NCBI GenBank assembly: GCA_011939005.1
Contig: GCA_011939005.1_4858.1
Direction: 5' to 3' (one strand)
Source of the DNA: a phage
DNA: 64,000 bases
Position numbers and translations under genes: made by a program. The notes beneath the pieces were generated by a model that saw only the letters and a list, made by a program, of their open reading frames with translations, did not search any database and was not told where the DNA came from. Shown piece after piece: positions 6,728-23,571 of this stretch. The first letter of the stretch is position 1, and every line of letters begins with the position of its first letter.

Positions 6728-6739
6728 GGAGATTTTTGA

Positions 6740-9700
6740 ATGAAAACGTATCCTTACGATCCTCGGGGTGTAAATCCTGAGTGTCACTTCATCGAGGAAC
6801 GTATCATCGACTCCGACAATCCTAACGATCGGGTGGTGATGCTAGATCATCGCCCGTTTTTCGAAGGATTGGTGGTAAGGCTCGCCGGCTCGTCCATACC
6901 GCTTACCCGCGGGACGGACTATGAGCTGGAGTATGCTTTAACACCGTTGGACGACTCGGTGACGACCCCGGTGTTTTGCGGGGTGCATCTTATTAACCCT
7001 AAACTGCGTGGTGCGGTGGTCTTTGAAGGCCAGATGCTCGGGGGTACGTTTTACAGTGGTTTGATTGAGATGTTGGATGAGCTAGTTAAGGCACTCAACA
7101 ATCCAACGGCTGCAGATTGGCTGCTTTTAGGTAATCGACCTTCCCTGTACCCAGCCACCCCTGCAGCGGTGGCTTGGTCAGACATGCTGAATAAAAAGTA
7201 TGTTGCCTCTGCAGTGCATGATGTGGAGTTAGATGCCGGGGCGGCCAACGAGCAGATTCGTGAAAAGCTTACTGAGCTGAAAGATGCGGTTTTGGGCTTA
7301 GGAACTGAAATCGCCGCATTTAACTACCCCGGACACATTGCGTCGACTAACCCTCATGGGACTACCGCGGCGCAGGCCGGTGCGCATCCTGTCAACCTGA
7401 AAACGCCAGATACTTTCCTGGCGTATGGAAAGACGTTGCGTCAGTTAACCAGCGAGGTCCGTGCACTGGGTCTGCAACAATCGGATATCGACAAGTACAT
7501 TTCTAAATGGGTATCGAAAGAATCCAAAGGGGTGTTTAATGCGACGATATCCGGTACTCGTGCCCTGTTCCGTTCTCCTGCTGGTGAATCCGAAATTGTG
7601 TTCTCTGCTGAGGCATTCACTCTTAAATCTAATGGCTCTGTTGTGTTGGCGTGTGGGTATGCCGACACTACTGGAACCGTCCGGTTTATGGAGTGGAAAG
7701 CAGGCATCAATACATTACGTATTGAGTCGACTGGCAGTGCCTTGGGGATGGATAAGCTGACGCTTAATGGTACGACGTTACTGACCACAACTGCTCTCAT
7801 GGGCTATCAACAAGACCCTGGTACCGGCGGTGGTACCGTTGACCCGGATGACAACAAACTGTACATTAGCGGGGTGAACGGCATCACTTTCACGGGTAAA
7901 GGGTCAAAAGCCGATCCCGTCACCGGGAAGGTCACAGCCAAACCCGCGACGACCTCTGAACCAGGCGTTGTGACGCTGACTGATAAGCCGAGCGATGTAG
8001 TCAAAGGGCAAGCAGCCACCCCGTCGGCGCTTTTGCCGTATGAGGGCGACCTGTCTTCGTACGTCAGGAAGACAACGCTGCTGAATAACCAGCCGATGAA
8101 CACTGGTAGTCGAACGCTGACGAAAAAGGATTTAGGTTTAGACTTGGCTGATAACACAGCTGACGTCGATAAACCACTTTCTGATGCGTTGGCAGAAGCA
8201 GTTACCGGTCTTAGTGATAAAGGTCACCATCACAACTTCGCTGATTTACAGATTCCAACAGCCTCTCAAACTGTGCCAGGTATCGCACGATACTCTACCA
8301 ACTTAAACGGCTTGGCGGATAATCGCGGCGTTACCCCGAATGTTCTGAACGATCTGTCAAAACGTTTAGACGTAGTTGCAGCTGCGCTAGCAAACGCGAA
8401 AGAGGATTCCGTGACCGATTTTGCCGCTGTGCGTGGTAAGACTTGGACTGTGGGATCTACACGTACCACCCTCGCCGTAACGGATTTGAATTATTTCTAT
8501 CTGTTAAATGGTGCACGTAAAGAGGGGACGGTATCTGGTTCGATAGACCTGCAAACCACCCCGATGTTCCAGTGGTTCTCTCCAGATAACCGTATGGAAA
8601 GAACGTGGCAGAACGCGGTAATTAATATCGGTGACGGTATTGATTTTAGTGGGTTTGAGGTTGCCGTCCCGGAAACGAACTACGGTGCGCAGATTGGGTT
8701 AACGGCAACCGGCATGGGTGACTTATCGGTTGTTAACCTTTTAGCAAAAACGTGGGTTCGTTGCGATACAGGTAAACTACGTATTTGGGTTCGTGGCGGT
8801 GGTGCTGTTTCTGTTTATCTGGACGGTGTAATTATCGGTGCGGGTATTACAGAAGCGGGGTATCTGGAGGCGACTGTCAAAGAGGGGTGGAAGCAACATT
8901 GCCTGGCGTTTCGTGCGGAATGTAACAATAGCGCGAAAGCAGCTGCTATACGCTTCACCATTTACGATGGTGATTACCCGGTTGCGGTGTCGGACAAAAA
9001 CACCAAAGTTGCCCGCCTGCAGGAGTTTGTTAAGACCGCGAACGGTTTACGACATTATCTTTACGTGAACATGATAACCAACGCATTGTATTCACGTGCG
9101 GAACCCATTGTGGACACGGAAGGTATTAACCTGGAGCGTGGGTACATTGGTTACATTGATGTACCCGAGACGGGATTGGTTGCAGGTACGACTTACGAGT
9201 TTGAAACGACGTTTGATTTTGGCATGGCGTCCGAACTTAAACGGCACTTCGAAACACGTCTGGCGCACGGAGTGAGTAATGCCGACTGGTCGTTGACGGA
9301 TAACCCAAAAATGTTACCGCTAAACAAAGTCGATCCGTTGCCTAAACAGTGGCTTTATGCGTACCCTAATAGTCCAGTTTCTGGTAACCACTATATTCGA
9401 TTAGACCGAGGGTTATTCGATTATAAATTTGATAGTACCATTTCAAGCCTAGTGTTTGTTGGAGCGGTTGTCTCCACAGAAAGCGCATCACCGTACTGCT
9501 GGTTTACACCAAGCAACCCGAAAGAAAAAGGGATGGCGACGTTTGAAGGTTCTGTGGTGGTCGATGTTGATTTGTCGGAAGCACAAACAGTTCGCGTTCG
9601 CGATATCACATTAAACTTCATGGCCCCGTCTGCAGATGATAAAAGCAAGACCAGGGTACTGAGATGGAGTGGCAATCGTCCAGAATTGAATTGTGGCTTC

Positions 9701-10870: not shown

Positions 10871-10965
10871 GACGGACTGCCTACGGGCGGGTAGTCCGTA
10901 GGTAAACCGCCCTTCCGTTATTGGGAGGGCGGTCTCCGTTTTATTACAGATTAGGAGTGTTTGCA
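10871..10965 (+). other. structured intergenic region with nested hairpins between fiber genes
   Basis: Inverted repeats CCTACGG/CCGTAGG and CCGCCC(T)TCC/GGAGGGCGG followed by T-rich tract. Confidence 0.4.
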
Positions 10966-13900
10966 ATGCCGAGAGAAGATGCGGCGCAGTTTAACGGTAC
11001 CCTCAGTACCGCTACTTACCCGAACCGTTATTCGACGGTCATTCCCGTCGAAGCACCGTTCTATCGCATCGGGTTAACGTTAACCGTTACCGATAAAACA
11101 ACCGGAACCAAACGCAAGTTAATAGAAGGTCTTGATTATTTCTTAGGACATTACTTCCAGGAATTAGCCGAGGCTGAGAACGATGCAATATACGGCAGCA
11201 TAATGCTGCTGAACGCCACAGAGGTAGAATACGAGTTATTGTCGGTTGGTCGACAGTATCGCATCCCTGCTTCTGAAATCGGCAAGTATCTGGTTAAGAC
11301 GGATATGAAAGACCCGCGCAACTGCGATTGGTCTGAGCTGATGAAATATCCGCCGATTATCTCGCCAATCGACCCGCCAAAAGATCTCGAAGAAGCCATC
11401 CTTCGCGATGAAATCGTAAAGGCGTTGGAAGATATCCGTCTGGGTATTTTAGAACGTGCCCACGAACTGGATGAGGCTTTTGCGGAAGTTACTGATTTGA
11501 TTTATCAGAACGGTAAAAAGGTGTTTGATGACGAAATGTATCAACACCACCTGATTAAAAATGCACATGGTTACACCTGCGGTGACATTGGCGCTCTCCC
11601 GGTACTCGGCAAAGCCGTAGATGCGACTAAGGCATTCGGACGTACCCTGGCAGAGCTAGTGACGTTAATGTCTACCAGTGGCATCCAACAGAAACACGTT
11701 GACATGCTTCTGGATAATACCCTGGGTGATTTACTGGGCCGTATGCGTGTTCTGAATAACGACGCGATTACGTTCCAAACAACGTCTGGTCACGTTATCA
11801 GCATGAAGGGTGAGAAGTTCATCATCACCTCGACAAAACCGCTGGTATTAAAAGCTGACCAGGATAACAACGAACCGGGTATCGCTACGGAGTTCAGTGC
11901 TGGTCTGAACACGCTTTGGGTTCACTCGGGTAAAGCAGGTGACAAGTGGGGCGCTTATGATGCAGGTGTGCTTGCACCTGTGTATAACAGCGTGTATCTC
12001 GTTACGCCGGATATGGTTAAGATGTACTTGACCTCGGTGAAGATACTTCCAGCAAACGCCTACTTCAAGTCCAGCGACACGTTGAAGATTTACGGCTCTG
12101 GTAAAGAAACAAACAAACTTTACATGAATGCGGAGCTGCCTGCAGCAACCACAACTGTGCAGGGTTTGTTTGCGATTACTAACCTTTCGGCGTCCGCTGC
12201 AGCATCCACAGCGATTTCCCAAAAAGCTGTTACTGACTTGAAGAACAAACTCGACGGATATGTGGACGACACGTATACAGTCAACGGTAAAGGGTTTGTA
12301 TTAGATTCAAACGGGCAGATGCATCTGACCTTAACCGCGGCAGATTTCGGTATTGAGAAGATGAACAATACCGGGCCGCTGGAGAAACCGGTTACTAATG
12401 CGTTGCGCACCGTGCTATCTGGCAAAGCGCTTACAACGCACACCCACACCATTGCCGATCTCGATAACGTGCCGTACGCATCCACGTCTGTTACAGGTTT
12501 GGCTAAACTGTGGGATGCTATTGACACCACAACAGATAAGATGGTTACTTCGCGTCAAGGCTTCTTGCTTGAACAGAAGATTGACACGCTGAATGACAAG
12601 ATTGCTACGTTATTACCGGCGTGGACTGTCGGCGGATCATCGTACGGCAACAATAACTTCTTGCCTATACCTGTCCAGGGGAACTACGAAGGGTATACCA
12701 AAAACCAAACCTGGCAGAAAGGTTTGGCGCGTTACGAGTCTGGTAAGGTTTACTCGCTCCGTAACGGTTCTAACGGGAACCCACCAGGTGACTGGGCTAT
12801 CTATTACGCCTATGCTGATGTGTCGCCAAGCAATACGCTGGAAAATATGCAGCAGACGTCCGTACGCTATCGACCCGCTGGAATGTCGGCGTATCCTGGG
12901 GTGAATCTGGTTGCTATTGTGATTACCGGTACCGATGCAATGATCTGCTTAGGCAGTGACGGTGCGTACTACCTGGTCATCTTCGATGGGACGATTGACC
13001 ATGCAAAACATCATCGTGTTGTTAAAGTGGTGTTGGGTGATTACAAGAACGGTAATGGTGCGGGCACAGTAACGACAGCACCGTGGGCTCCAAACGCTTC
13101 TACAGACGATTTGATTGTTTGTAATGAACGTGTCTACCTGTTGCGTACGGTGCTTACCTCCGGTAACTATTTCGTGAGTATGCGTAGCATCGCACTCAAC
13201 GAACTTAATCTGGGTGGCAGCAACACGTTTGTGGCGGATGCGTTAACAGGCGGGATATTAACGTCGGGTGAAAACGTTTATCTGCGACAGGGACAGAAAC
13301 GTGCACCTTCCGATGCGCTCCCAGCACCAGTTACACAGATCTACGCAGACGCGTTAGCGAAGTGGAACAATGCAACCAACTTTGTACATGGTCCTGAGTG
13401 TAATCACGCGATTGGTGTTGATGGGCTGAGCTTTCGTGTTGGTTTAACTCCAACGGTTTGGTTTGCTTCTACTACAGGGCAAACTATTAACTTTAAACAA
13501 TGGGTGTCAAGCTTTGTTGTCGACTGTAGCGCATTAACGGTAACGCTGGAAGGGGCTGATCGATTCCCTATTGTGGCTGATCTTACCACGGTTCGTTATA
13601 ACGGTGGTACTGAGATTGGGATTCCAAGCCGGAAGTGGGGCGAAGGTCAAGCTAATAACCGAACCTTTGCAACATCGCAAGACAAGTATATCGTTTCGCA
13701 GGGACATGCAGGCGATCGCGACCTAATGCCAATTGTCACGATTACCACGTTAGACGACGGTGTGAGTTGGTACGAGTACCTGTCGTGCGACTACAACTTC
13801 ACTGCCAGAAGTTTTAGTGCGGTAATGTTAAACCAAGGTCGTGGTTCTATCTACGAGCTAGGTATGGCGTATCCACTGACTCTGGGAGCGAATTCCAGAC

Positions 13901-16149
13901 TTATCTGGTTGTCACAGCCACGTTCCCGTTTGGCAATTGAAGTTGAGTTTGATCCGAACACCACTTACTCAGGTAAGGTGGGGTATGGCCCAACTAACAA
14001 TCGTCGTGTAGTAGATTCTATCACGTATGAGAATCTGTCGCAGATGTGCCACATTGTTACACCGGCGTCGCCTGGTACAGAGTTAAACGGCTGGTATTGC
14101 ACAGGGCCAGAAACATTCCCTTACCACAACGTTTCTGGCACTTTCACGATTCATGCCGATCGGTTGACGCTGTCACAGGCCGAATGGGATAAGATGAAGC
14201 AGATGATCATCGACGGTGCACCGGCAGGCGCTGCGAATGGTTATGCTTCGGAATTTATCCTTGCCGCAAATAACGCAGGAAAGGCATTGTTCTCCGTTTG
14301 GTTCATCGGCATTGGTACGGCCACACCGCTCACGTTAGCACAAGTAGCATGTACGCGTACTGTGAACAACGTTAACGTGTTGGATATCTACTACTTTACA
14401 CTGAAACCAACAATCAGCAACGGGCAGGTAACATTCCCCGCAGCGATATTGGCTTTGTTTGACTTCTATAACAACCTCGACTATAGCTTGAACTATGCTA
14501 CGTTGGGTGAGATAACGGGAGGAAAAACACGCCGGCCGGGACAACCTACCTTGGTGTCAGTAGATGGTACTCAGTTCGGGTTGTATCTTCCACACACGTT
14601 AACCTTGCGCCAAATTGGCGACTTGGGTGCGCTTAACTACGCTGTTGGTCTTACGCTGTCTAATGGTACTTGGACGCGTTCTTCTGCTCCACACGGCGTT
14701 GGACGTATGGCACCGTCACACACTCCAGTCAGTCCAGCTTATCTGGCACATCGCGATCAAGTGATGTTACACAACTCATCTCTCGACTACGTCTATTGTG
14801 GTGGTATCGCAACGCCGTCGAGAGATTTTGTCGCGGCTCCTAATTTTAGTGGCCCGACTGAATCGGTTGTCATTGCTGGTGTGGAAACAGCTGAAGGTTG
14901 GCTGGTATATGTGACTGAGGAAGTTGACCTGCGTTTCGGCTCGAGCACTTATAAGCTGCCTACGTGGTATATTGACCTCAGCGCAGCATTTCCAACAAAC
15001 CATCAGAACCGGACATTCTACCTGCACGCCAAGGTAGAAAATGGTACACCGAAGTACGTAATGGACGTGGTTCAACATCCAGACACTGAAACGGAACTCT
15101 ACATCGGGTATGTTAAAACGGGCTCGTCGCGAGTCGTCGAGACTAACGTCGAACATGCTAAGCGATTGGGGGCGGTGAAACAACTGTTGGAACATGCGGC
15201 GGTTGAGAATAAGCATGATGTGGAGGTGGGAAGGGATGCGGCAACGGGCAGACTGGCACCATTGCGTAAAGAAGCGATGGGTCCTTTGTCTATCGATGCT
15301 ACGAAAGGCTATCTGGATAGTCAGTTGCTTTATACCGTATCTGACGCACAGCGTCGCGGTAAACCGATGGTCTCCAAACGTTTCGAAGGCTTGAAAACTT
15401 TGCCGGCGTTTACTCAGGCAAACAAGTCGGGGGCGTTTTGGAAACATCCTACAACAATTGCGACGGTAACGGCCGATGAGAACGGTGAAGCGGCATCGTT
15501 GGGAATGGAGTGGGTGGGTATCCCTACGCCTGCTTTCTCTCCGACCTCAGGAATGATGATAGTGGTGATACAAAGTAAATTCGTCGTCCCAGGTACACCG
15601 GGAGTAGAAACGACCTTTAATGTCAACATCGCCCCATGGGATACGGTAGATAGATTTTTCTACAACGTCGAGGCGGAAGGTAAGGATGTTAACATTGAAG
15701 AAAATCCAGAAGTGCTAATGCCGACACCACATACCGTGTATCACAAACAGCATTCTCTGCCCGCAGGCGTGCCATGTACGTTTACTTTCGCTGCTGTGTT
15801 GAGTTCCCCAGCGCTTGAGATGGCCAACCAGCATATTTGCTCTTGGCTTTTCACGGACGCGGGGGGACTACCAATCACCACCGATCTTTCGGATAGTAAG
15901 ATTCAAATCTTACCATTGGGGGGAGAGACCTACGGCACACCAGTTGTTTTGAACAGCCGTAGCTACACGTTTGTGGATGTGGCGGGTGCAATTCCGGTTG
16001 TTACCACGGGCGCTCAGGGTTTATTCCCACCACCGATCGTGGCGTGGGATGGCGATGATCTTACGTTAACGATTGCGCACGATTGGGTGAACGAGAGAGG
16101 ATGGCAACAGCCTGATATTATCCAGGTCAATCTTATGTTCCGTACCTAA
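10966..16149 (+). CDS. tail fiber protein (about 1727 aa from internal ATG)
   Basis: ORF track starts at an upstream non-ATG codon; ATG at 10966 has RBS TAGGAG; shared N-terminal module; fibre-repeat-like segments (HTHTIADLDNVPYASTSVTGLAKLWDA). Confidence 0.65.
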   Translation: MPREDAAQFNGTLSTATYPNRYSTVIPVEAPFYRIGLTLTVTDKTTGTKRKLIEGLDYFLGHYFQELAEAENDAIYGSIMLLNATEVEYELLSVGRQYRIPASEIGKYLVKTDMKDPRNCDWSELMKYPPIISPIDPPKDLEEAILRDEIVKALEDIRLGILERAHELDEAFAEVTDLIYQNGKKVFDDEMYQHHLIKNAHGYTCGDIGALPVLGKAVDATKAFGRTLAELVTLMSTSGIQQKHVDMLLDNTLGDLLGRMRVLNNDAITFQTTSGHVISMKGEKFIITSTKPLVLKADQDNNEPGIATEFSAGLNTLWVHSGKAGDKWGAYDAGVLAPVYNSVYLVTPDMVKMYLTSVKILPANAYFKSSDTLKIYGSGKETNKLYMNAELPAATTTVQGLFAITNLSASAAASTAISQKAVTDLKNKLDGYVDDTYTVNGKGFVLDSNGQMHLTLTAADFGIEKMNNTGPLEKPVTNALRTVLSGKALTTHTHTIADLDNVPYASTSVTGLAKLWDAIDTTTDKMVTSRQGFLLEQKIDTLNDKIATLLPAWTVGGSSYGNNNFLPIPVQGNYEGYTKNQTWQKGLARYESGKVYSLRNGSNGNPPGDWAIYYAYADVSPSNTLENMQQTSVRYRPAGMSAYPGVNLVAIVITGTDAMICLGSDGAYYLVIFDGTIDHAKHHRVVKVVLGDYKNGNGAGTVTTAPWAPNASTDDLIVCNERVYLLRTVLTSGNYFVSMRSIALNELNLGGSNTFVADALTGGILTSGENVYLRQGQKRAPSDALPAPVTQIYADALAKWNNATNFVHGPECNHAIGVDGLSFRVGLTPTVWFASTTGQTINFKQWVSSFVVDCSALTVTLEGADRFPIVADLTTVRYNGGTEIGIPSRKWGEGQANNRTFATSQDKYIVSQGHAGDRDLMPIVTITTLDDGVSWYEYLSCDYNFTARSFSAVMLNQGRGSIYELGMAYPLTLGANSRLIWLSQPRSRLAIEVEFDPNTTYSGKVGYGPTNNRRVVDSITYENLSQMCHIVTPASPGTELNGWYCTGPETFPYHNVSGTFTIHADRLTLSQAEWDKMKQMIIDGAPAGAANGYASEFILAANNAGKALFSVWFIGIGTATPLTLAQVACTRTVNNVNVLDIYYFTLKPTISNGQVTFPAAILALFDFYNNLDYSLNYATLGEITGGKTRRPGQPTLVSVDGTQFGLYLPHTLTLRQIGDLGALNYAVGLTLSNGTWTRSSAPHGVGRMAPSHTPVSPAYLAHRDQVMLHNSSLDYVYCGGIATPSRDFVAAPNFSGPTESVVIAGVETAEGWLVYVTEEVDLRFGSSTYKLPTWYIDLSAAFPTNHQNRTFYLHAKVENGTPKYVMDVVQHPDTETELYIGYVKTGSSRVVETNVEHAKRLGAVKQLLEHAAVENKHDVEVGRDAATGRLAPLRKEAMGPLSIDATKGYLDSQLLYTVSDAQRRGKPMVSKRFEGLKTLPAFTQANKSGAFWKHPTTIATVTADENGEAASLGMEWVGIPTPAFSPTSGMMIVVIQSKFVVPGTPGVETTFNVNIAPWDTVDRFFYNVEAEGKDVNIEENPEVLMPTPHTVYHKQHSLPAGVPCTFTFAAVLSSPALEMANQHICSWLFTDAGGLPITTDLSDSKIQILPLGGETYGTPVVLNSRSYTFVDVAGAIPVVTTGAQGLFPPPIVAWDGDDLTLTIAHDWVNERGWQQPDIIQVNLMFRT

Positions 16150-16196
16150 CAGATAGCGCTATGGGGCAAGGAAGCCCCAATCAAAGGAGTTTGGCA

Positions 16197-17399
16197 ATGG
16201 CCGAAATCATTTATCAGTACCCGCTCGACCTTACCGGGACATTAACGTCGAACGCCGTTACGCGGCGTATTACGTTAGGTTCTGGTAAAGTTAACCGGGC
16301 TTTTGCATTTCCTGACGGAGCTTTCTACGCGGATACCTTCCGCTTGGCGGCTGCGAATAAACCAGGTGTCTACCCGTACAAACGCGGCACAGACTACGAA
16401 CTGATTTTTGCACATACTGCATATCAGAAAATGACCAAGAACCGCGAAGTGGTCATGGGTGTGGTGGTAACTAACTCGGCCATTCCTACTGATATCGAAG
16501 TCTCTGCGCAAGTCGTTGGTGGTTTTCAGTCCGCGAACGTCGAAGGCATCCGACAAGCGATTGCGTCGTTGAAAATTGAAGACCGCGTGGTGGACTTCAA
16601 GGATCTTCGAAACGTACCCGATACGTTCCCGTCCGCACCGACGTATAAAGACCTTGGCGATATCTACGGTTTTGAGTATATCATTACCGTACTCGCGGGG
16701 ATTAAAGATGCGATTAACTCCGGCTCTGCAGTACAGCTGGAAGAAATTAAAGGTATTCTGGGTGGTCTGAAAAACGACTTCCTCGACGCCTTAAATGCCC
16801 ACATCAACGCCGAAGGTAACGTACACAATCTCGACATTCATCAGGTTAATGGCCTGACGGAGACGGAGATTCGTGCCCTGATTCAAAGTGTACAGACTGC
16901 CATTGACGCCACCATCAAAGATATCGGCGACTTAAGAGCAGCAGACACAGCGTTGGGGCAACGCATCGATGCAATTGTGGCTTCGTTAGCCGCGTGGAAC
17001 GACCAGCTTAACGTGGTTGCTCAAAATTACCAGAAAATGTCGTTAGCATTAGCTAACCTTAATTCTCTGGTGTTGCAATTACAGAAGATGGTTAACGATC
17101 TTCAGTCTGCACTGAATAAAACAAATCAGCGCGTCACGGATCTTGAGAATCAGGGCAAAGACTTCCAACAGCAAATTGATAACCTGCAAGGACAAATCAA
17201 CAGTCTTAAAACTCAGGTTGTAAATAACACCAACGCAATTTCGCAGGCAAACCAGAATCTGGCGAACCATGCGGCTGCGGATAACCCACACCCGAATTAC
17301 CTCCATAAACAGTATGGCGGTGTTGTGCAGGCTGCTGTTCACGTCAACAACAACCTCACCTCGCGCGACGATGTTCAAGCTGAAGCGGGTACTAAGTAA
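16197..17399 (+). CDS. fiber-associated coiled-coil protein (about 400 aa)
   Basis: Internal ATG with RBS AAAGGAG; shared N-terminal module (GTDYEL); long heptad-like Q/N/L-rich C-terminal region. Confidence 0.55.
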   Translation: MAEIIYQYPLDLTGTLTSNAVTRRITLGSGKVNRAFAFPDGAFYADTFRLAAANKPGVYPYKRGTDYELIFAHTAYQKMTKNREVVMGVVVTNSAIPTDIEVSAQVVGGFQSANVEGIRQAIASLKIEDRVVDFKDLRNVPDTFPSAPTYKDLGDIYGFEYIITVLAGIKDAINSGSAVQLEEIKGILGGLKNDFLDALNAHINAEGNVHNLDIHQVNGLTETEIRALIQSVQTAIDATIKDIGDLRAADTALGQRIDAIVASLAAWNDQLNVVAQNYQKMSLALANLNSLVLQLQKMVNDLQSALNKTNQRVTDLENQGKDFQQQIDNLQGQINSLKTQVVNNTNAISQANQNLANHAAADNPHPNYLHKQYGGVVQAAVHVNNNLTSRDDVQAEAGTK

Positions 17400-17410
17400 C
17401 TTGTTTACGA

Positions 17411-17450
17411 GCCGGACTATGTTTATGGACATAGTCCGCTCGTTCTACTT
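17411..17450 (+). terminator. hairpin, possible terminator/attenuator between fiber operon and Cys-peptide operon
   Basis: 9-bp stem CGGACTATG / CATAGTCCG, T-run a few nt downstream. Confidence 0.4.
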
Positions 17451-17464
17451 TTTAAGGAAGCGTA

Positions 17465-17857
17465 ATGGCGATATCTATTAAAGACGTCAGAAACCGCGTC
17501 CAGATAGTCGAAGCTAACATGGCGACAGGCCCCCGCGTCGACGCGCAAGTGGCCTCTAAAGCCCATAATGCGGCAGACCGATTTGGGGGTTGGACGAAAA
17601 CACAGCTAGATTGCGGAGGGACATGTTCTTGGACGTGCTCTAACGGTTGCTCGCATGGCTGTTCGAGCTGTTCAGGAAGCTGTTCTGCTTCTTGTATCGG
17701 TAGCTGTTCTTCGACGTGTGGCGGTAACTGTTCTGGTTGCTCTGGTTGTTCTGGTGGTTGCAGTAGTAGCTGTACCGGTAACTGCACAGGTGGTTGCGGT
17801 GGCTCTTGTTCTTCCAATTGTTCCGGAGCCTGCTCCGGTGGCTGTTCAGGTCGCTAA
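17465..17857 (+). CDS. Cys/Ser/Gly tetrad-repeat small protein A (130 aa); candidate RiPP precursor
   Basis: RBS AAGGAAG; N-terminal ~50 aa non-repetitive leader-like region, then about 21 Cys in C-x3 (sometimes C-x2) spacing built only from C/S/G/T/N/A. Confidence 0.6.
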   Translation: MAISIKDVRNRVQIVEANMATGPRVDAQVASKAHNAADRFGGWTKTQLDCGGTCSWTCSNGCSHGCSSCSGSCSASCIGSCSSTCGGNCSGCSGCSGGCSSSCTGNCTGGCGGSCSSNCSGACSGGCSGR

Positions 17858-17867
17858 GGGGGATTAA

Positions 17868-18272
17868 ATGGCAATTGGATTAAAAGAACTGAATAACCGA
17901 TTAAACACGATCGATGCAAACGCTCTAAAGAATACCACGAATGTGCAAAACTACATTCGCAATAAAGCTACGAATAACGCTGACTTGTTCGCAGGTCAAG
18001 GTCGTTCGCACTACGACTGTGGTGGTACGTGTTCTTTTAGCTGCTCAAGTTGCTCTGGCGGGTGTACTGGGTCTGCGACAGGTGGTTGTGGGTCGACTTG
18101 TTCGGCAAACTGTGTATCAGGCTGTAGCAGCAGCTGCACGGGCTGTAGCTCTTCGTGCTCTGGTGGTTGTAGCGGCACGTGCACAGGCAGCTGTTCTGGG
18201 GGTTGTGGTAAATCCTGCTCCGCAAACTGCTCAGGTGCGTGCTCTGGTGGTTGTTCAGGTCCTAACTCCTAA
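17868..18272 (+). CDS. Cys/Ser/Gly tetrad-repeat small protein B (134 aa); candidate RiPP precursor, paralog of A
   Basis: RBS AAGGGGGA; leader-like N-terminus similar to A (I.LK..RNRL), core starts DCGGTCS and ends CSANCSGACSGGCSG, nearly identical to A. Confidence 0.6.
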   Translation: MAIGLKELNNRLNTIDANALKNTTNVQNYIRNKATNNADLFAGQGRSHYDCGGTCSFSCSSCSGGCTGSATGGCGSTCSANCVSGCSSSCTGCSSSCSGGCSGTCTGSCSGGCGKSCSANCSGACSGGCSGPNS

Positions 18273-18287
18273 CTGACGGAGGCTTAT

Positions 18288-18494
18288 GTGATCAGTCTCA
18301 AGACTATTCGAAACCGTCTCGTTACGGCAGAAGGTTACATTACAACCGCACAGGCAAACAACTATATCGCTAACCAGGGCACCGTGTCGACCACAAATAA
18401 CCTGGCTGGCTTACCGCTTTCTCACTATAACTGTAATGGTGGGTGTAGCTGGTCCTGCAGCGGAAGCTGTAGCCGTGGAGCGGGGAATCGATAA
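18288..18494 (+). CDS. short paralog C (68 aa) with truncated Cys-repeat core
   Basis: Apparent GTG start with GGAGG RBS; leader-like region similar to A/B; core NCNGGCSWSCSGSCS. Confidence 0.45.
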   Translation: MISLKTIRNRLVTAEGYITTAQANNYIANQGTVSTTNNLAGLPLSHYNCNGGCSWSCSGSCSRGAGNR

Positions 18495-18516
18495 CAGAAA
18501 ACGTTCGGAGTATTAA

Positions 18517-19404
18517 ATGAAAAACGATTTGCATCTTGCGTATAAAACCACATTCAACCACCCGCTGCATCTATCTTCCCCAGATTCAGTGCGTGCACAT
18601 CTCGCTGACAAAGTCAGACTGATTGCACAGATTCCTGGTGAGTGGCCAAAGGTTCGTGGTCGCTTCTTGACCGACAAGAAGAACTACACCGTAGAAAATA
18701 CGTTTAAGATCCGTGATATGGTTGCAGAGGCCATCGTTATCTTTAACGGCGATGGTAACTCTCGCGGCGTGTTGGTTGACGGTAAGTATTTCTTCAGTGA
18801 AGGGATTCTGAACAACAGTGTCGATTTAGAACTGATGTTTACACCGTTTGACGAACTTGAAGCAAAACCGATGGCGCGCCGTTGGTGGAGTCCGGACTAT
18901 CTGGGCTCGTTCCCTTACTACTTTGTACTGGTACCTGCCGATACGGAAACGTATTTCGACACCGAACCATACATCGATATCGAGGGGTATAAAGAACTCG
19001 GCATCACCCGTTTAGCGGACATGATGGCGTATAGCTATAAGTTCGTGTGGGATAAAAAGCGTTCTGTCTGGTATGCGCTGACTGACGATTTTGAAATCAC
19101 CAAGCGTATTCGTAAGCCGTGGATGCAACACCTGGTTCAAACTCGATATGGGGATTACCCGGCGACAGAAGCGGATTTGAGTAAGCTGGTAAGTTTCCTC
19201 TTAACGAAGGTGGATTTAACGAAAGAAGAAGCAGAAGCTGTTTCTGAGATTCGTGGTCGTTCGGTAACGTTGGCCGATTTGAAACGTCTGAACGAAAGAC
19301 ACGCCGACCTGAACAAAATTTTAGCTGCCTATCACGACCCGATGTTACTGGTGCCTGGCGCTAACGTAGACGAAGATCCTTTATTCGCCATTGATTATAT
19401 TTAA
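18517..19404 (+). CDS. hypothetical protein (295 aa) in Cys-peptide/radical-SAM operon
   Basis: RBS GGAG; co-oriented and tightly spaced with neighbours; no motif recognised. Confidence 0.55.
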   Translation: MKNDLHLAYKTTFNHPLHLSSPDSVRAHLADKVRLIAQIPGEWPKVRGRFLTDKKNYTVENTFKIRDMVAEAIVIFNGDGNSRGVLVDGKYFFSEGILNNSVDLELMFTPFDELEAKPMARRWWSPDYLGSFPYYFVLVPADTETYFDTEPYIDIEGYKELGITRLADMMAYSYKFVWDKKRSVWYALTDDFEITKRIRKPWMQHLVQTRYGDYPATEADLSKLVSFLLTKVDLTKEEAEAVSEIRGRSVTLADLKRLNERHADLNKILAAYHDPMLLVPGANVDEDPLFAIDYI

Positions 19405-19426
19405 AAATATACTGGAGCAACCTGCA

Positions 19427-20341
19427 ATGACAGATCAAGTAGAATCCAGGATCTCGTCTGAACTGTACGACAAACCGTCAATTCTGTCGGTTGTCGCAAC
19501 TTCTAAGTGTAACTTAGACTGTAGCTTCTGTGGAGGGGCTTATTACATGGATAGAGAAGATACTTCTCGTGAGTTTCAACGTGAAGAGATTCTCTCGATT
19601 TTAGAGAAGAATCCGGATATCGGTGAGATTCATTGGACGGGCGGTGAGCCGCTGTTAGCGCAGCGCAAGATTGAAGACTTCGTGAACGAGTTGAAGGAGT
19701 CTCATCCGAACCTCCGTCATCACATGTACACCAACGGTTTAAAGATGCGTAAATCACATCTGCCGTTGCTGAAACAGTTCGACCTTATCTTTGTGTCCAT
19801 TGACGGCTACAAGAAGTCGGAACGTCCGTTTATGAACTTTGTAAACGGTGGTAATCACGAAGCGCTGGAAGTGCTGTACGAGCTGGACAACTATTACACC
19901 TGGGGTGTGATGACGCGTGACCAGTTAGGTGATAAACGCTGGTACGAAGATTTCATCGAGCTGCACCGAGCAATCTATCATTACCGTCCAGGTGGTATGT
20001 CGTTGCTGTTTGATGCGATGATGCCGAAACCGTTATCGCCAGACCACGTCATGAACTTCATGTACGGGTATTGGAAAATACTCGACAATATCGAACGCCT
20101 TAACATGCAGAACGATTCTGAATGTGGGCTTGCGATCAGTAAAATGTTCGATACCGAGTGCAACACGTGCAGTGAAGTGCTGTGGCTTAACGCCGACGGT
20201 ACGCAGGAGCAAATTCAGAACGCCCCAGAGATATTGGAAGTCGGCTGTAATCGCCTGGCGCGTTCTATCGGCGTTGATGCGTATAACTACATCAACCGTG
20301 TAATTTCTGCTAAGCGTAAACGGGCGGCGAACAATGAGTAA
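19427..20341 (+). CDS. radical SAM enzyme (about 304 aa)
   Basis: C-x3-C-x2-C (CNLDCSFC) about 28 aa from the internal ATG start (RBS GGAG); GGEPLL motif; extra C-terminal cysteines (CGLA...CNTC...C) suggest an auxiliary cluster. Confidence 0.75.
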   Translation: MTDQVESRISSELYDKPSILSVVATSKCNLDCSFCGGAYYMDREDTSREFQREEILSILEKNPDIGEIHWTGGEPLLAQRKIEDFVNELKESHPNLRHHMYTNGLKMRKSHLPLLKQFDLIFVSIDGYKKSERPFMNFVNGGNHEALEVLYELDNYYTWGVMTRDQLGDKRWYEDFIELHRAIYHYRPGGMSLLFDAMMPKPLSPDHVMNFMYGYWKILDNIERLNMQNDSECGLAISKMFDTECNTCSEVLWLNADGTQEQIQNAPEILEVGCNRLARSIGVDAYNYINRVISAKRKRAANNE

Positions 20342-21662
20342 TAGCGAACAGCAAATCCAGTACACACCACGCACGTATCAGGTTGTGACTAACCTGTCAT
20401 GTAACCTGGACTGCGAATACTGCTACGAGCGTAAATATCCACGCAATAACAAAGTAGCTGACGTGATTGATTTTATCCACGCTTGCTTCGAGCGCGATAA
20501 AGATATCCCGAACGTTGAAGTCATCATCGATATCATCGGTGGTGAGCCGTTCATGCAGCCTAAACTTCTTTTGGCGGCCTTTGAAACCGCAGAGAAGTTA
20601 TGCGCAGAACACAATCGCCCGTATATGTTCAGTATCTCCACGAACGGTACACTTCTGGACCGTCCGCTGAACAAAGAAATTATCGAGCGCTGGAAAGACA
20701 AACTGTCTATTGGGGTCTCCATCGATGGTTTACCTGAAGTCCATGACAAATATCGTATCTTTACCACGACGCGTGAAGGGTCGTACGAAGCTGCGGTACG
20801 TGGTTACAATTATCTGAAGAGTGTTGGCATCGCTGAACTGGGCGTAAAGGCGACGTTTACGATCGATACATTGCCGCACTATGCCGCCAGCATGAAATCG
20901 TTAATTGACATGTCCGGCGGTGGTACCATTTCTGGTAACGTAACGTACGAAGATATCCTACCGCGCCATATGGCGTTGGATATCGCGAACCAGATGATGG
21001 ACGTGATGGACTACTGGATTGAGAAGGGTCTGCACACCAACCCGCGTAACACGATTACACACATCATCCCGGATGGCCTGAACTTTATGGCAACTTGGGA
21101 CCCGGATTGGCGTGACAAACTCTTACATGACGACTCTGTTCGTCTCGACCCAGAACGCCTGAAACCGTACTGCGGTACGTTGACGCACATGACCTGTCTC
21201 GGCTTTGATCGCAAGATTTACGGTTGTAACCGTTTCATGTCCACGGTAACTTCCCGTTCTGCTGTAGCAGAACTGGTCGGTCGTGAGTTTGTGAGCCTGG
21301 ACGGTGGTAAGCTGTTAGAAGAGATTCAAACGCAGTACACCAACTACCCAGAAACCTGTTTAGGGTGTCCGATGAAACACAGTTGCGGTAGCTGCGCGGC
21401 AGCATCGTACGAAAACGGTGAAGGTACACTGGAAGACCGTAAAGCGTATCATGCCGAGCGTCGTCAGTGTGGTTGGACTACTGCGAAGCTGATGGCGGCA
21501 GAATATTGGTATCAGAAAACTGGTACGACCCGCGCATCAGATTTGCATGATAAATCCATGTGCTATTGTTCACGTTGTGTACGCCAACGTGCTGAAGCAG
21601 AAAAATTACAAAACGGAGCCCAGAATGAAGTCAATACTGATTCACAATTTTACGAAGCGTAA
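20334..21662 (+). CDS. radical SAM enzyme with SPASM-like C-terminal domain (442 aa)
   Basis: CNLDCEYC near N-terminus; C-terminal cysteine cluster C-x2-C-x5-C-x2-C plus upstream Cys; start ATG overlaps stop of the upstream radical-SAM gene (translational coupling). Confidence 0.8.
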   Translation: MSNSEQQIQYTPRTYQVVTNLSCNLDCEYCYERKYPRNNKVADVIDFIHACFERDKDIPNVEVIIDIIGGEPFMQPKLLLAAFETAEKLCAEHNRPYMFSISTNGTLLDRPLNKEIIERWKDKLSIGVSIDGLPEVHDKYRIFTTTREGSYEAAVRGYNYLKSVGIAELGVKATFTIDTLPHYAASMKSLIDMSGGGTISGNVTYEDILPRHMALDIANQMMDVMDYWIEKGLHTNPRNTITHIIPDGLNFMATWDPDWRDKLLHDDSVRLDPERLKPYCGTLTHMTCLGFDRKIYGCNRFMSTVTSRSAVAELVGREFVSLDGGKLLEEIQTQYTNYPETCLGCPMKHSCGSCAAASYENGEGTLEDRKAYHAERRQCGWTTAKLMAAEYWYQKTGTTRASDLHDKSMCYCSRCVRQRAEAEKLQNGAQNEVNTDSQFYEA

Positions 21663-22191
21663 ACTGCACTTGGTCGATCGCTTCCTGCGCAAAAGCAAGC
21701 TGTACAATGTGCACGCAATTGTGGCAGGGGAAGACTTCACTGATGAAATCCAAAGCCTGTTGATTAAATACGGGCTGAATGTGATGATCCCGGTCTACTG
21801 CGTTGAGAAAGGACACGAGTCTGTCGCAGAAATCGAAAAGCGCAATCCTGGCTTTGAGAAGCGATTGCTCGCATACCCACGCCACAAAATCGAACTGCTA
21901 CGTCATTCCATCGATGAAGCCAGTCCTGAAAGTTTAGTGGCTTTGGGCTTGTCTTTCCCGCGGATGCGTATTCGTAACTTACGCTCCAATAATCCGGTCG
22001 ACGCGTATTACACAGAGCGTCAAATCTTTGAAGAACATCTGCTCCCGCAGTTGGAAGAAGAAGAGCAACACAACATTTCGTTGTTGTGGGCCGGTAACCT
22101 CGATCAGGACTTCCAGATGCTGGACTTCGGTTTGTTGTTAGAACTTGGCCTGATTGAGGAGGACGAATGTCTGTTACTGACAAAAGCTTAA
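21625..22191 (+). CDS. hypothetical protein (about 188 aa)
   Basis: Internal ATG with RBS GGAG; overlaps end of upstream gene; same operon. Confidence 0.45.
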   Translation: MKSILIHNFTKRKLHLVDRFLRKSKLYNVHAIVAGEDFTDEIQSLLIKYGLNVMIPVYCVEKGHESVAEIEKRNPGFEKRLLAYPRHKIELLRHSIDEASPESLVALGLSFPRMRIRNLRSNNPVDAYYTERQIFEEHLLPQLEEEEQHNISLLWAGNLDQDFQMLDFGLLLELGLIEEDECLLLTKA

Positions 22192-22838
22192 CGAACGAAG
22201 AGATCCGCGCCCGTTATTTCCAGCGCAATTTGCCGATTGACCGACACGGCAACTTCATGGAACGTATCGGTGCAGAGGATCAAGGCCGTACAGGCTTTTG
22301 CGCTCTGCTCCATTATCATCTCATCGAAGGGATGTCTGATAAAGAAGCCCTGGCACGCATGAAGCTGTATGAGATGTCGGAGATTGAAGCTAACTTCACA
22401 TTGAAACGCACGAAAGAGTTTATTGCTAATGTGCTGGAGATTGACCTCGACGAAATTCGCGGGAATCTAAAATCTACCGCACGTTACATTTACGAAGACG
22501 TGCAGAAGATGCTGTTGGAACTCGACCACCGCTACGAAGATGAGCGCCATGGTTATATCGAGTTTGAAGGTAGTCACTTTCAAGCCGATGAATCGTCGCG
22601 TACCATCCTCGGTCAATACATTCAGGCAGATACCGCACCAGAATACTGGCTCGATACGCTGAATACTAAGCACAGTCCGTTTACAGTAGACCAATGTAAA
22701 GCGTTGTTGGGCGCTATTGTTGCACGCGACCAAGTGTTGCACTCAGCAATGGCAGATAACAAACGCCAAATCCGTGAGTTAGCTGAAAAGCGCGATTACA
22801 CTGGATTAAAAACATTGTCCGAGTCACTCGGCATGTAA
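22167..22838 (+). CDS. hypothetical protein (223 aa), last gene of operon
   Basis: RBS GAGGAGG; followed by strong terminator. Confidence 0.5.
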   Translation: MSVTDKSLTNEEIRARYFQRNLPIDRHGNFMERIGAEDQGRTGFCALLHYHLIEGMSDKEALARMKLYEMSEIEANFTLKRTKEFIANVLEIDLDEIRGNLKSTARYIYEDVQKMLLELDHRYEDERHGYIEFEGSHFQADESSRTILGQYIQADTAPEYWLDTLNTKHSPFTVDQCKALLGAIVARDQVLHSAMADNKRQIRELAEKRDYTGLKTLSESLGM

Positions 22839-22852
22839 GCAAAGAAAATAAA

Positions 22853-22895
22853 GGCCCTACCTCCCCGAAGGGAGGTAGGTACCTTTTATTTATTT
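22853..22895. terminator. bidirectional rho-independent terminator
   Basis: 10-bp stem CCTACCTCCC / GGGAGGTAGG with CGAA loop, T-rich on both sides. Confidence 0.7.
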
Positions 22896-22919
22896 CTTAG
22901 AAACTACTAAGTTGTTTTG

Positions 22920-23447
22920 TTAAACGAATCCGTCCAGTTCACCGTTGGTGGTACTCAGGTCAGTTTTAACGATTGGCTGCGTTACAGTATAAACTGCAAG
23001 GCTGGCAGGCTGGTATTTAATGTGGCCTTCTTTCACCTTAACAGTGATGATTTTCTCACCACTGTCGCCGTCCTCGCGTGTAATGGTGAGTTCAGACAAT
23101 GCAAACGCATCTTCCGTTTTACCGGCAGCAATTAGATCTGCGTTGACAAAAGCAAGCACTTCTTCATCGGTATCCCATTCTGCCTGGTCAGCGGTAACTG
23201 CTTTCGCACCGATGATGTTCAATGAATCGAGGCGGGTATAATGCAGCTCTTTCTCGCCAGTAAAGTTAGCGGATTCCGCGGTGGCAGTGATGGTGAGTTT
23301 GGAGTTGCGATGGTCTCCAGAATCTGCTGGTGAATAGTCAGCAACAGCGCCGAATGTAACGTCAGCAGAAGTTAACGGACTAGACAGTCCGCTGTTTGCA
23401 GCATTAAACAGCGCAACGAGTTGGTCTTTTGCAGAGATGACTGCCAT
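22920..23447 (-). CDS. fiber-like protein, short member of the N-domain paralog family, C-terminal NGELDGF motif
   Basis: Internal ATG with RBS AAGGAAA; N-terminus resembles the 36982-43059 array; ends TNGELDGFV. Confidence 0.5.
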   Translation of the reverse strand: MAVISAKDQLVALFNAANSGLSSPLTSADVTFGAVADYSPADSGDHRNSKLTITATAESANFTGEKELHYTRLDSLNIIGAKAVTADQAEWDTDEEVLAFVNADLIAAGKTEDAFALSELTITREDGDSGEKIITVKVKEGHIKYQPASLAVYTVTQPIVKTDLSTTNGELDGFV

Positions 23448-23571
23448 GGTTGTTTCCTTATAGTAGGTTTGTGGTGCATACCAAATCATTCTAAAAAATA
23501 CATAGTGGGGTTAATATGACAGTAAAGTTGGCTGTTAAACGAGAAAGTTTTTACCACTGAAAGGATACCTT

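Follow-up and report, generated by a model that had tools for sequence, protein, structure and literature searches.

A phage contig, GCA_011939005.1_4858.1 of NCBI GenBank assembly GCA_011939005.1, carries a plus-strand operon at positions 17465-22838 of the 64,000-nucleotide stretch that was analysed here (the window). In this operon, three small cysteine-repeat genes (pepA, pepB and pepC) precede the gene of a 295-residue protein, the genes of two radical S-adenosylmethionine (radical-SAM) enzymes, rSAM1 and rSAM2, and two further genes. All eight open reading frames (ORFs) were found on the plus strand at the coordinates given by a sequence-only reading, which had proposed a maturation system for peptides that are made on the ribosome and modified after translation (RiPPs) and, as an alternative, modified virion or fibre components. 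Across all of 17400-22900, the window shares 98.3-98.5% identity with Salmonella phage SPN3US and phages close to it, among them Proteus phage 7, Escherichia phage EC001 and SEGD1; for STsAS, SPAsTU and Erwinia phage pEa_SNUABM_29 the value is about 80%. The SPN3US-like relatives are jumbo myoviruses of about 240 kb, genus Seoulvirus. In SPN3US numbering the operon comprises genes 166-161, directly after genes 167-170.

The operon opens with pepA (17465-17857; 130 residues, 21 Cys), its paralogue pepB (17868-18272; 134 residues, 20 Cys) and pepC (18288-18494; 68 residues, four Cys), a truncated paralogue that keeps the leader and a conserved box. These are followed by a conserved accessory protein of 295 residues (phrog_8030; 18517-19404), by rSAM1 (19427-20341, alternative TTG start at 19391; 304 residues), a predicted twitch-like radical-SAM enzyme, and by rSAM2 (20334-21662; 442 residues), a predicted radical-SAM/SPASM maturase. 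Last come a gp162-like protein of 188 residues specific to the SPN3US group (phrog_7988; 21625-22191) and a gp161-like DUF4376 protein of 223 residues (22167-22838). Packing is tight in the distal half, where successive genes overlap by 8, 38 and 25 nt. The operon had been described as terminator-bounded, and signals were indeed found on both sides. Upstream, between gp167 and pepA, lies a terminator- or attenuator-like plus-strand stem-loop (17407-17443) of 16 bp with a folding energy of -25.5 kcal/mol (z = -3.1; 0 of 200 shuffled sequences fold as well) and a T-run a few bases further downstream; a simple terminator scan did not call this hairpin. Downstream, a bidirectional intrinsic terminator (22856-22879), with a 10-bp stem of seven GC pairs and T-runs on both strands, closes the operon.

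The Cys-repeat proteins and their reading frame

All three small proteins match phrog_6085 (E = 1.5e-40, 3e-41 and 2.7e-24 for pepA, pepB and pepC), in agreement with their description as paralogues. They share one architecture, namely a short amphipathic helix with heptad patterning, a conserved segment that we call the fibre box, N-[AN]-x-x-[LF]-x-G-x(5-6)-[YL]-x-C-x-G-x-C-S-[WF]-x-C, and about 80 residues of Cys-Ser-Gly-X repeats. In pepA, the N-terminal helix and box take up 49 residues and are followed by 81 residues with 21 Cys, mostly in CxxxC spacing. Neighbouring cysteines are four residues apart in 17 of the 20 intervals of pepA and in 16 of 19 in pepB. The cores consist of about 80% Ser, Cys and Gly, and a composition count found no Asp or Glu in the core of pepA, pepB or pepC. 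While pepC retains the N-terminal part with only four Cys, such a short form is also kept in CR5, Kwan and Asesino, with 2-4 Cys. Runs of at least six consecutive C-x2-3 units occur in the 64-kb window in pepA and pepB only, and the pattern is not a chance product. The CXXX-repeat target profile TIGR04114 gave 18.9 bits for pepA, 17.1 for pepB and 13.7 for the third protein, just under its cut-off of 20. Precomputed PF27846 matches exist for a close homologue, P0119, and for the fibre-like protein of locus L010 (L-numbers denote related loci and P-numbers related proteins, as labelled in this analysis).

We tested the reading frame because the GenBank and RefSeq annotations of SPN3US contain none of pepA-C but place a 111-residue ORF in another frame over pepB. 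In a comparison with STsAS and pEa_SNUABM_29 (about 80% DNA identity), the differences in pepA were distributed 14/7/69 over the three codon positions of the Cys frame, mainly on the third, and the ratio of synonymous to non-synonymous codon changes was 61:14 in this frame versus 8:71 and 7:72 in the other two. The codon changes of pepB and pepC followed the same pattern. Over about 20% nucleotide divergence, only about one residue of the 81-residue pepA core has changed, and the Cys core is more conserved than the leader in the same comparison. On this comparative evidence, the Cys-rich frame is the coding frame, and pepA-C are predicted to be expressed, strongly constrained proteins. The codon-position and synonymous/non-synonymous test rules out both that the Cys-rich ORFs are non-coding low-complexity sequence and that the annotated alternative frame (SPN3US_0166) is a real gene.

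Public records treat this region differently. Those of SPN3US (JN641803, NC_027402) carry the wrong-frame SPN3US_0166/gp100 over pepB (window 17941-18276) and omit pepA, pepB and pepC, and that of EC001 (MN445185) annotates all three small ORFs. In L022, a related IMG/VR jumbo-phage contig, pepA (4126-4518) and pepB (5516-5914) lie about 1 kb apart instead of 10 nt, which suggests an insertion between the two paralogues.

Two radical-SAM enzymes and their companion proteins

Both enzymes score above the Pfam Radical_SAM (PF04055) cut-off of 29.5 bits, rSAM2 with 55.6 bits and the motif CNLDCEYC, rSAM1 with 58.6 bits and the motif CNLDCSFC, and either motif is invariant among the respective homologues. 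Across an alignment of 24 rSAM2 homologues, down to 32% identity, C23/C27/C30, C280, C298, C342, C345, C351, C354 and C379 are invariant and C288 is nearly so. Read against the SPASM pattern C-x9-15-G-x4-C ... C-x2-C-x5-C-x2-3-C ... C (seven Cys, two auxiliary clusters), rSAM2 is, as judged from its alignment, a full radical-SAM/SPASM enzyme with a complete SPASM Cys set, in line with the earlier impression that one of the two enzymes was SPASM-like.

Profile searches, likewise suggested beforehand, placed rSAM2 closest to TIGR04115, the "radical SAM peptide maturase, CXXX-repeat target family" (3e-36; 125.6 bits versus a cut-off of 350), and second to the PapB ranthipeptide maturase (1e-32; 113.6 bits versus a cut-off of 340), in a near full-length match over residues 22-357. 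Behind these two came many other SPASM peptide maturases, including the SCIFF maturase TIGR03974. The anaerobic sulfatase maturase family (1.3e-15), NirJ, viperin and QueE scored far lower than the top matches, and rSAM2 stays below the NCBIfam cut-off of every characterised family. The ranking supports the view that rSAM2 belongs with the thioether-forming SPASM peptide maturases, probably as a sister subfamily of TIGR04115. By sequence, the closest solved structure is 5WGG (E = 3e-10; rSAM2 22-179 aligned to chain residues 106-263), which we take to be the SCIFF thioether synthase CteB, with a RiPP recognition element (RRE) domain presumably forming its N-terminal region of about 100 residues. 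There is no counterpart of this region in rSAM2; the CxxxCxxC motif begins at residue 23, which leaves no room for an N-terminal domain.

For rSAM1, NCBIfam returned generic radical-SAM core matches only, and the protein falls into the same PHROG as rSAM2. Its CxxxCxxC motif and C245, C248 and C274 are kept in 9-10 of 10 homologues. Because only three conserved C-terminal Cys are present, rSAM1 would be a twitch-like rather than a SPASM enzyme. Its ORF opens at TTG 19391, ATG 19427 has an upstream GGAG, and the latter is most likely the start. In the RefSeq annotation (SPN3US_0164/gp102; window 19391-19546), the start of rSAM1 was placed downstream of the CxxxCxxC motif, and CR5_154 has been cut likewise. 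We rejected QueE, NrdG, viperin and MoaA as identities of the enzymes, since the similarity is confined to a generic N-terminal core. The grouping with QueE, NrdG or viperin that the sequence-only reading had named as evidence against peptide maturation was not observed: viperin reached 44.7 versus a cut-off of 180, QueE 40 versus 260 and NrdG 39 versus 131, all three matches being restricted to the N-terminal core of rSAM1, and the PADLOC pVip matches cover about 110 of 260 model positions.

The 295-residue protein yielded a confident AlphaFold2 model (predicted local distance difference test, pLDDT, 88.9), for which no known fold was found. In L009 (2e-9), L092 (1e-7), L093 (2e-6), L094 (2e-5) and L095 (1.5e-9), a homologue is encoded after the Cys-domain gene and before the rSAM genes. 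A known RRE, a peptidase and a TIGR04116-like partner were each considered and dropped, as Pfam, NCBIfam and PADLOC gave no family match, and the protein is a candidate substrate-docking or chaperone component. More generally, none of the operon proteins matched a peptidase or transporter family in Pfam, NCBIfam, PHROGs or PADLOC.

The last two genes do not appear to belong to the conserved part of the system. Although the ORF of the gp162-like protein opens at 21547, the PHROG match (from residue 27 of the long ORF) and the RefSeq start both indicate 21625. The gp161-like protein matches Pfam DUF4376 with 37 bits (cut-off 25) and, weakly, the tail family phrog_2837. In L094, a DUF4376 protein also follows the rSAM pair, but its pairwise similarity to the gp161-like protein is not significant, and the gp162-like protein has no homologue in the distant loci. 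Both were therefore rejected as parts of the conserved core.

Homologous loci and fusion to tail-fibre proteins

We scanned IMG/VR with degenerate patterns of the rSAM2 family, obtained 279 relatives and retained the best 80 of these 279 loci. In 74 of the 80, an ORF with at least six consecutive C-x2-3 units lay within 3.5 kb of the rSAM2 relative, and all such Cys-repeat ORFs (97 of 97) were on the strand of the enzyme; four of the six loci without one are cut at the contig end. In the window, pepA and pepB are located 1.5-2.9 kb upstream of rSAM2 on the same strand. The linkage, together with the maturase families, upholds the enzyme-substrate logic of the proposed RiPP-like operon. The distant loci come mostly from gut metagenomes and contain bona fide TIGR04115 enzymes (498, 427 and 388 bits in L030, L027 and L042), usually without rSAM1 and the 295-residue protein. 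At one gut-phage locus, the CXXX protein comes right after the tape measure, Dit, a minor tail protein and a 796-residue structural protein. There appear to be two related types of system, the catalogued single-enzyme CXXX system and a four-component SPN3US type.

The whole module, consisting of two long Cys proteins and a short one, the 295-residue protein, rSAM1, rSAM2, a protein of about 190 residues and a DUF4376 protein, is kept in four jumbo-phage genera, Seoulvirus, Erskinevirus, Derbicusvirus and Wellingtonvirus. Outside this group, the nearest rSAM2 relatives are 32-39% identical. At L009, a prophage on a Deferribacter abyssi contig, a GpJ-like tail protein is followed by proteins of 147, 316, 302 and 250 residues, a 263-residue rSAM and a 385-residue rSAM/SPASM enzyme. 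Here the 250-residue protein is the homologue of the 295-residue protein, and the 263-residue enzyme is homologous to rSAM1 over its full length (E = 1e-14). The 302-residue protein is a fibre with T5-LTF-like repeats, in which tail-fibre HxH/DxRYYTE repeats are followed by "...KATNADQLGGQAGSYYRCSDCSWTCSSSCTGSC..." and then by about 100 residues of Cys repeats. L092 and L095 have the same architecture, with fibres of 258 and 271 residues, and HxH-type repeats precede the Cys domain in L092 as in L009. L093 encodes a T7-tail-like protein of 607 residues and then a 79-residue Cys peptide, and L094 a Cys protein of 110 residues. On a 213-kb metagenomic jumbo-phage contig (L010/L011), a T4 gp13-like gene, a fibre-like protein of 568 residues that ends in "NAVTLGGQPPDFYTCGGSCSWSC..." and two rSAMs were found. 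In the T7-like podophage L096, the order is capsid, tube, nozzle, a protein with a T7 tail-fibre N-domain, a 132-residue protein, a 213-residue Cys-tip protein and an rSAM. In each of L009, L092, L093, L094 and L095, genes for homologues of the 295-residue protein and of both rSAMs come after the fibre gene, an arrangement that establishes a conserved four-gene core and supports a fibre module. The module lies inside tail gene clusters in the window, L009, L092, L093, L095, L096 and L030. At L092, positions 6306-9134 hold three consecutive radical-SAM genes (274, 301 and 377 residues) after the Cys-tipped fibre, not two.

The small proteins and the fibres are related beyond their repeats. Although BLASTP of pepB against the L009 fibre gave no homology under composition correction, phrog_6085 detected it, matching residues 169-263 of the L009 fibre (4e-12) and residues 443-531 of the L010 fibre (2.7e-14), and both matches start within the segment of the profile that corresponds to the "leader". 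When the sequences were aligned at their first C-x-G-x-C-S-W-x-C, the box N-[AN]-x-x-[LF]-x-G-x5-6-[YL]-x-C was seen to be common to pepA-C and the fibres. We then searched a profile of pepA-C and relatives against 1.84 billion representative proteins (E <= 1e-3) and found 359 clusters. Among the matches listed, 74 hits were parsed, 41 of which span both box and core. Only five of these 41 stand alone as small proteins. The remaining 36 carry 42-365 additional residues at the N-terminus, and in 20 of the 36 the domain ends within 15 residues of the C-terminus. The leader and box align to an internal region of proteins of 160-930 residues. All ten extended proteins tested (10 of 10) match phrog_6085 C-terminally, and four of the ten match tail-fibre PHROGs N-terminally, namely P0241 (tail collar fibre family phrog_910, 2.4e-20), P0272, P0200 and P0190; Pfam was uninformative on the extended homologues. 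By homology, pepA-C are stand-alone versions of a domain that elsewhere is fused to tail-fibre proteins and forms their C-terminal, predicted distal, end. The N-termini of pepA-C had been described as leader-like. Such a unit is present in all three, but its homology to a segment from within tail-fibre proteins means that it is not a dedicated leader.

The same searches returned further arrangements of the repeat. P0216 (791 residues) has the box and Cys-repeat domain at residues 274-382 and Hint/intein-type domains at 488-789, an unexpected fusion. P0192-P0199, P0209, P0220, P0246, P0264 and P0308 (1461-1867 residues) match the profile at 3-12 separate places, each time only in its Cys-repeat part. 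P0131 and P0136, Cys-repeat proteins of about 100-113 residues matched by pepB, start with a twin-arginine-type (Tat-type) signal (…SRRDFFKKAAK…), which indicates that a secreted bacterial version of the repeat also exists.

These data bear directly on whether the products are classical diffusible RiPPs, with leaders of about 49 residues cleaved off and cross-linked cores released at lysis as antimicrobial, signalling or anti-competitor peptides. The small size of the products (68-134 residues), their leader-like N-termini, the presence of three paralogues and the membership of the enzymes in RiPP-maturase families are what such a system would look like, and the Tat signals of P0131 and P0136 show that the repeat can be secreted elsewhere. 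Yet the family searches of the operon proteins revealed no protease, exporter or immunity gene, the leader and box are homologous to an internal tail-fibre segment, and stand-alone small forms make up only the five among the 41 box-plus-core hits. Furthermore, the core is more conserved than the leader, the module is always found within tail gene clusters, and rSAM2 has no N-terminal domain such as precedes the radical-SAM core of CteB. We consider diffusible peptides quite improbable. The leader-plus-core precursor reading is less supported than the alternative of virion or fibre components, which the fusion of the domain to tail fibres elsewhere makes the better-supported biology.

A putative tail-fibre maturation module

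We therefore favour, with moderate confidence, the reading that the operon is a tail-fibre maturation module, which would produce enzymatically cross-linked, probably thioether-bridged, fibre tips or accessory fibre subunits. Its genomic setting speaks for this. Upstream of the operon lie, on the plus strand, the genes of a gp168-like tail protein of 1742 residues (10921-16149; corresponding to SPN3US_0168), a baseplate or tail-fibre candidate, and of a gp167-like virion structural protein of 412 residues (16161-17399), which is rich in coiled coil and has Pfam matches of coiled-coil type only. SPN3US gp168, a protein similar to phiKZ gp131, is found in virions but not in a tailless mutant (PMC5105663, PMC5694885). 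According to published SPN3US data, gp168-170 are tail, baseplate or fibre candidates missing from the tailless mutant, and genes 161-165 are common to PhiEaH2 and CR5 and not to phiKZ. Virion proteomics of SPN3US lists gp160, gp167, gp168, gp169 and gp170 and none of gp161-166, gp162 included (PMC5694885 supplement). The absence of gp162-165 fits a maturation role, since enzymes and chaperones would be expected to stay out of the particle. For the DUF4376 protein (gp161; window 22167-22838), virion status is ambiguous, since gp161 is named as a member of virion paralog family B in the text of PMC5694885, while the virion tables list gp160 (18.5 kDa; window 22920-23489) instead. We considered gp167 as the N-terminal half of a split fibre and rejected it for want of similarity to the fused fibres.

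Elsewhere in the window, a perfect 78-bp tandem duplication (about two copies, 100% match; 35528-35696) lies inside a minus-strand ORF of 496 residues (35444-36934), where it is in frame and spans 26 codons. Rfam and tRNA scans of the window found nothing.

The Cys-repeat proteins could instead act in assembly only, as transient chaperones or scaffolds that fold or trimerise the large fibres gp168-170 and are absent from the mature virion. In many tail fibres the C-terminal domain is an assembly chaperone and is taken off afterwards, tail-assembly-chaperone-like genes are found close by (gp157), and pepC looks like a degenerate copy with few Cys. Irreversible radical cross-linking, however, is not obviously needed by a transient chaperone, and no protease domain was found with the fused versions; we regard a purely transient role as highly improbable.

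Several known systems resemble the module. The nearest is the TIGR04114/TIGR04115 (PF27846) CXXX system, reportedly first described by Haft and Basu in 2011, in which proteins with Cys at every fourth residue are likewise encoded next to a SPASM radical-SAM gene; its true members (388-498 bits) occur on viral contigs beside CXXX proteins in tail modules. The SPN3US type differs in adding a twitch-like second rSAM, an accessory protein of 250-295 residues and the fibre box of the substrate. In the literature searched, we found no experimental chemistry or function for either family and no published link to phage tails. Nor did it hold any description of the module, so that the statement that it is not a described phage module stands to that extent.

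In the His-Xaa-Ser system (HxsB/HxsC), too, a repeat-containing substrate is accompanied by two rSAMs, a SPASM enzyme and a shorter one. rSAM2 matches HxsB (4.8e-21) and rSAM1 matches HxsC (6e-12), which is also the top match of the partner enzyme in L009; the scores are far below the cut-offs, though, the repeat is H-x-S rather than C-x-x-x, and the system is itself uncharacterised. CteB/SCIFF and the sactipeptide maturases (5WGG) share the radical-SAM core, the SPASM domain and Cys-rich substrates with the phage system, but the significant alignment is limited to the radical-SAM core, and the phage substrates are fibre domains with about 20 Cys, whereas those of the SCIFF type are 45-residue peptides. 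In the QhpD/QhpC system, a SPASM rSAM installs several Cys thioethers in a subunit that stays in a larger assembly and is not a free peptide. The QhpD family TIGR03906 matches rSAM2 (3.8e-15) and the gut-phage enzymes (about 1e-28 to 1e-31). The homology is distant, and QhpD differs in using Asp and Glu as acceptors and an enzyme subunit without repeat architecture as substrate.

PapA, the substrate of PapB in freyrasin maturation, resembles pepA and pepB in being a periodic Cys-X3 repeat (CSAND units). PapB makes one small thioether ring per repeat, requires a carboxylate acceptor (Asp, Glu or the C-terminus) and recognises the leader via an RRE (PMC12373016). By comparison, the phage cores lack Asp and Glu and hence any C-x3-D/E motif, and rSAM2 lacks an N-terminal domain.

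A different chemistry of fibre components also has to be weighed, such as conversion of Cys to formylglycine, epimerisation, another C-C or C-S link, metal or Fe-S binding, or extracellular disulfides. That rSAM2 falls under the cut-off of every characterised family, has a match to the anaerobic sulfatase maturase and would act on cores without the acidic acceptors needed by PapB (PMC12373016) would be in keeping with it, as would the presence of two different rSAM enzymes, which suggests two chemistries. Metal-binding repeats are also common in tail fibres, and those of the HxH type stand ahead of the Cys domain in L009 and L092. Nonetheless, the top-scoring characterised relatives (PapB, SCIFF/CteB and the QhpD type) all make Cys thioethers, and there would be no need to keep two dedicated rSAMs across very distant phages if the twenty Cys were to remain free thiols or to form disulfides. 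Such chemistries are, in our estimate, unlikely.

For the fibre maturation module with thioether chemistry, we propose the following sequence of events. Late in infection, the 295-residue accessory protein, or the enzymes directly, would dock on the box, the accessory protein presenting the substrate in place of the missing RRE. rSAM2 would then use 5'-deoxyadenosyl radical chemistry and two auxiliary Fe-S clusters to connect the sulfur of each Cys with a carbon atom in a nearby residue, giving a sacti- or ranthi-type thioether, most likely at C-alpha because the core is without the acidic acceptor that the native chemistry of PapB requires. rSAM1 may add a second subset or a second type of modification. 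The product would be a ladder of about 20 small rings per chain, forming a rigid, redox-insensitive and protease-resistant rod or knob that remains part of the virion, either as the tip of a fibre or as an accessory subunit of it.

Several points weigh against this proposal. Four of its elements are steps that we infer: thioether formation itself, the way in which the two enzymes share the work, the function of the 295-residue protein and the presence of the products in SPN3US virions. With rSAM2 scoring well below the cut-offs of TIGR04115 and PapB, chemistry cannot be transferred from these families with confidence, and the lack of Asp and Glu in the cores excludes the native Cys-to-Asp reaction of PapB. 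The AlphaFold2 model of pepB (pLDDT 43) is uninformative for structure. The Cys core is near-identical in phages of Salmonella and of Erwinia, which argues against a host-specific receptor-binding role and suggests a structural or chemical role instead. gp167, found in SPN3US virions, does not resemble the fused fibres in the sequence of their N-terminal parts. Finally, pepA-C are missing from the published virion lists. Being unannotated, they were outside the protein database searched and could not be detected in the published SPN3US mass spectrometry, so that their absence is uninformative either way. Tryptic peptides of the unmodified leaders of pepA-C are VQIVEANMATGPR, VDAQVASK, LNTIDANALK, NTTNVQNYIR and ATNNADLFAGQGR. 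For SPN3US, which serves as a genetic model, amber mutants and deep proteomic data sets exist.

On a wider scale, we suggest more tentatively that radical-SAM "RiPP" chemistry has been recruited for virus particles, with jumbo myoviruses, T7-like podoviruses and gut siphoviruses all laddering a Cys-repeat domain at the fibre tip. If true, this would be the first case of a virion structural protein modified post-translationally by radical-SAM chemistry and an unprecedented covalent reinforcement of the host-recognition organelles of phages, with a bearing on particle stability in gut or reducing environments. It would also offer peptide and protein engineers a thioether-forming system that is leader-guided and repetitive by nature. 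Moreover, the CXXX-repeat/rSAM systems of bacterial genomes, long catalogued but unexplained, would largely be prophage tail modules, and an uncharacterised radical-SAM/Cys-repeat family would thereby gain a biological role.

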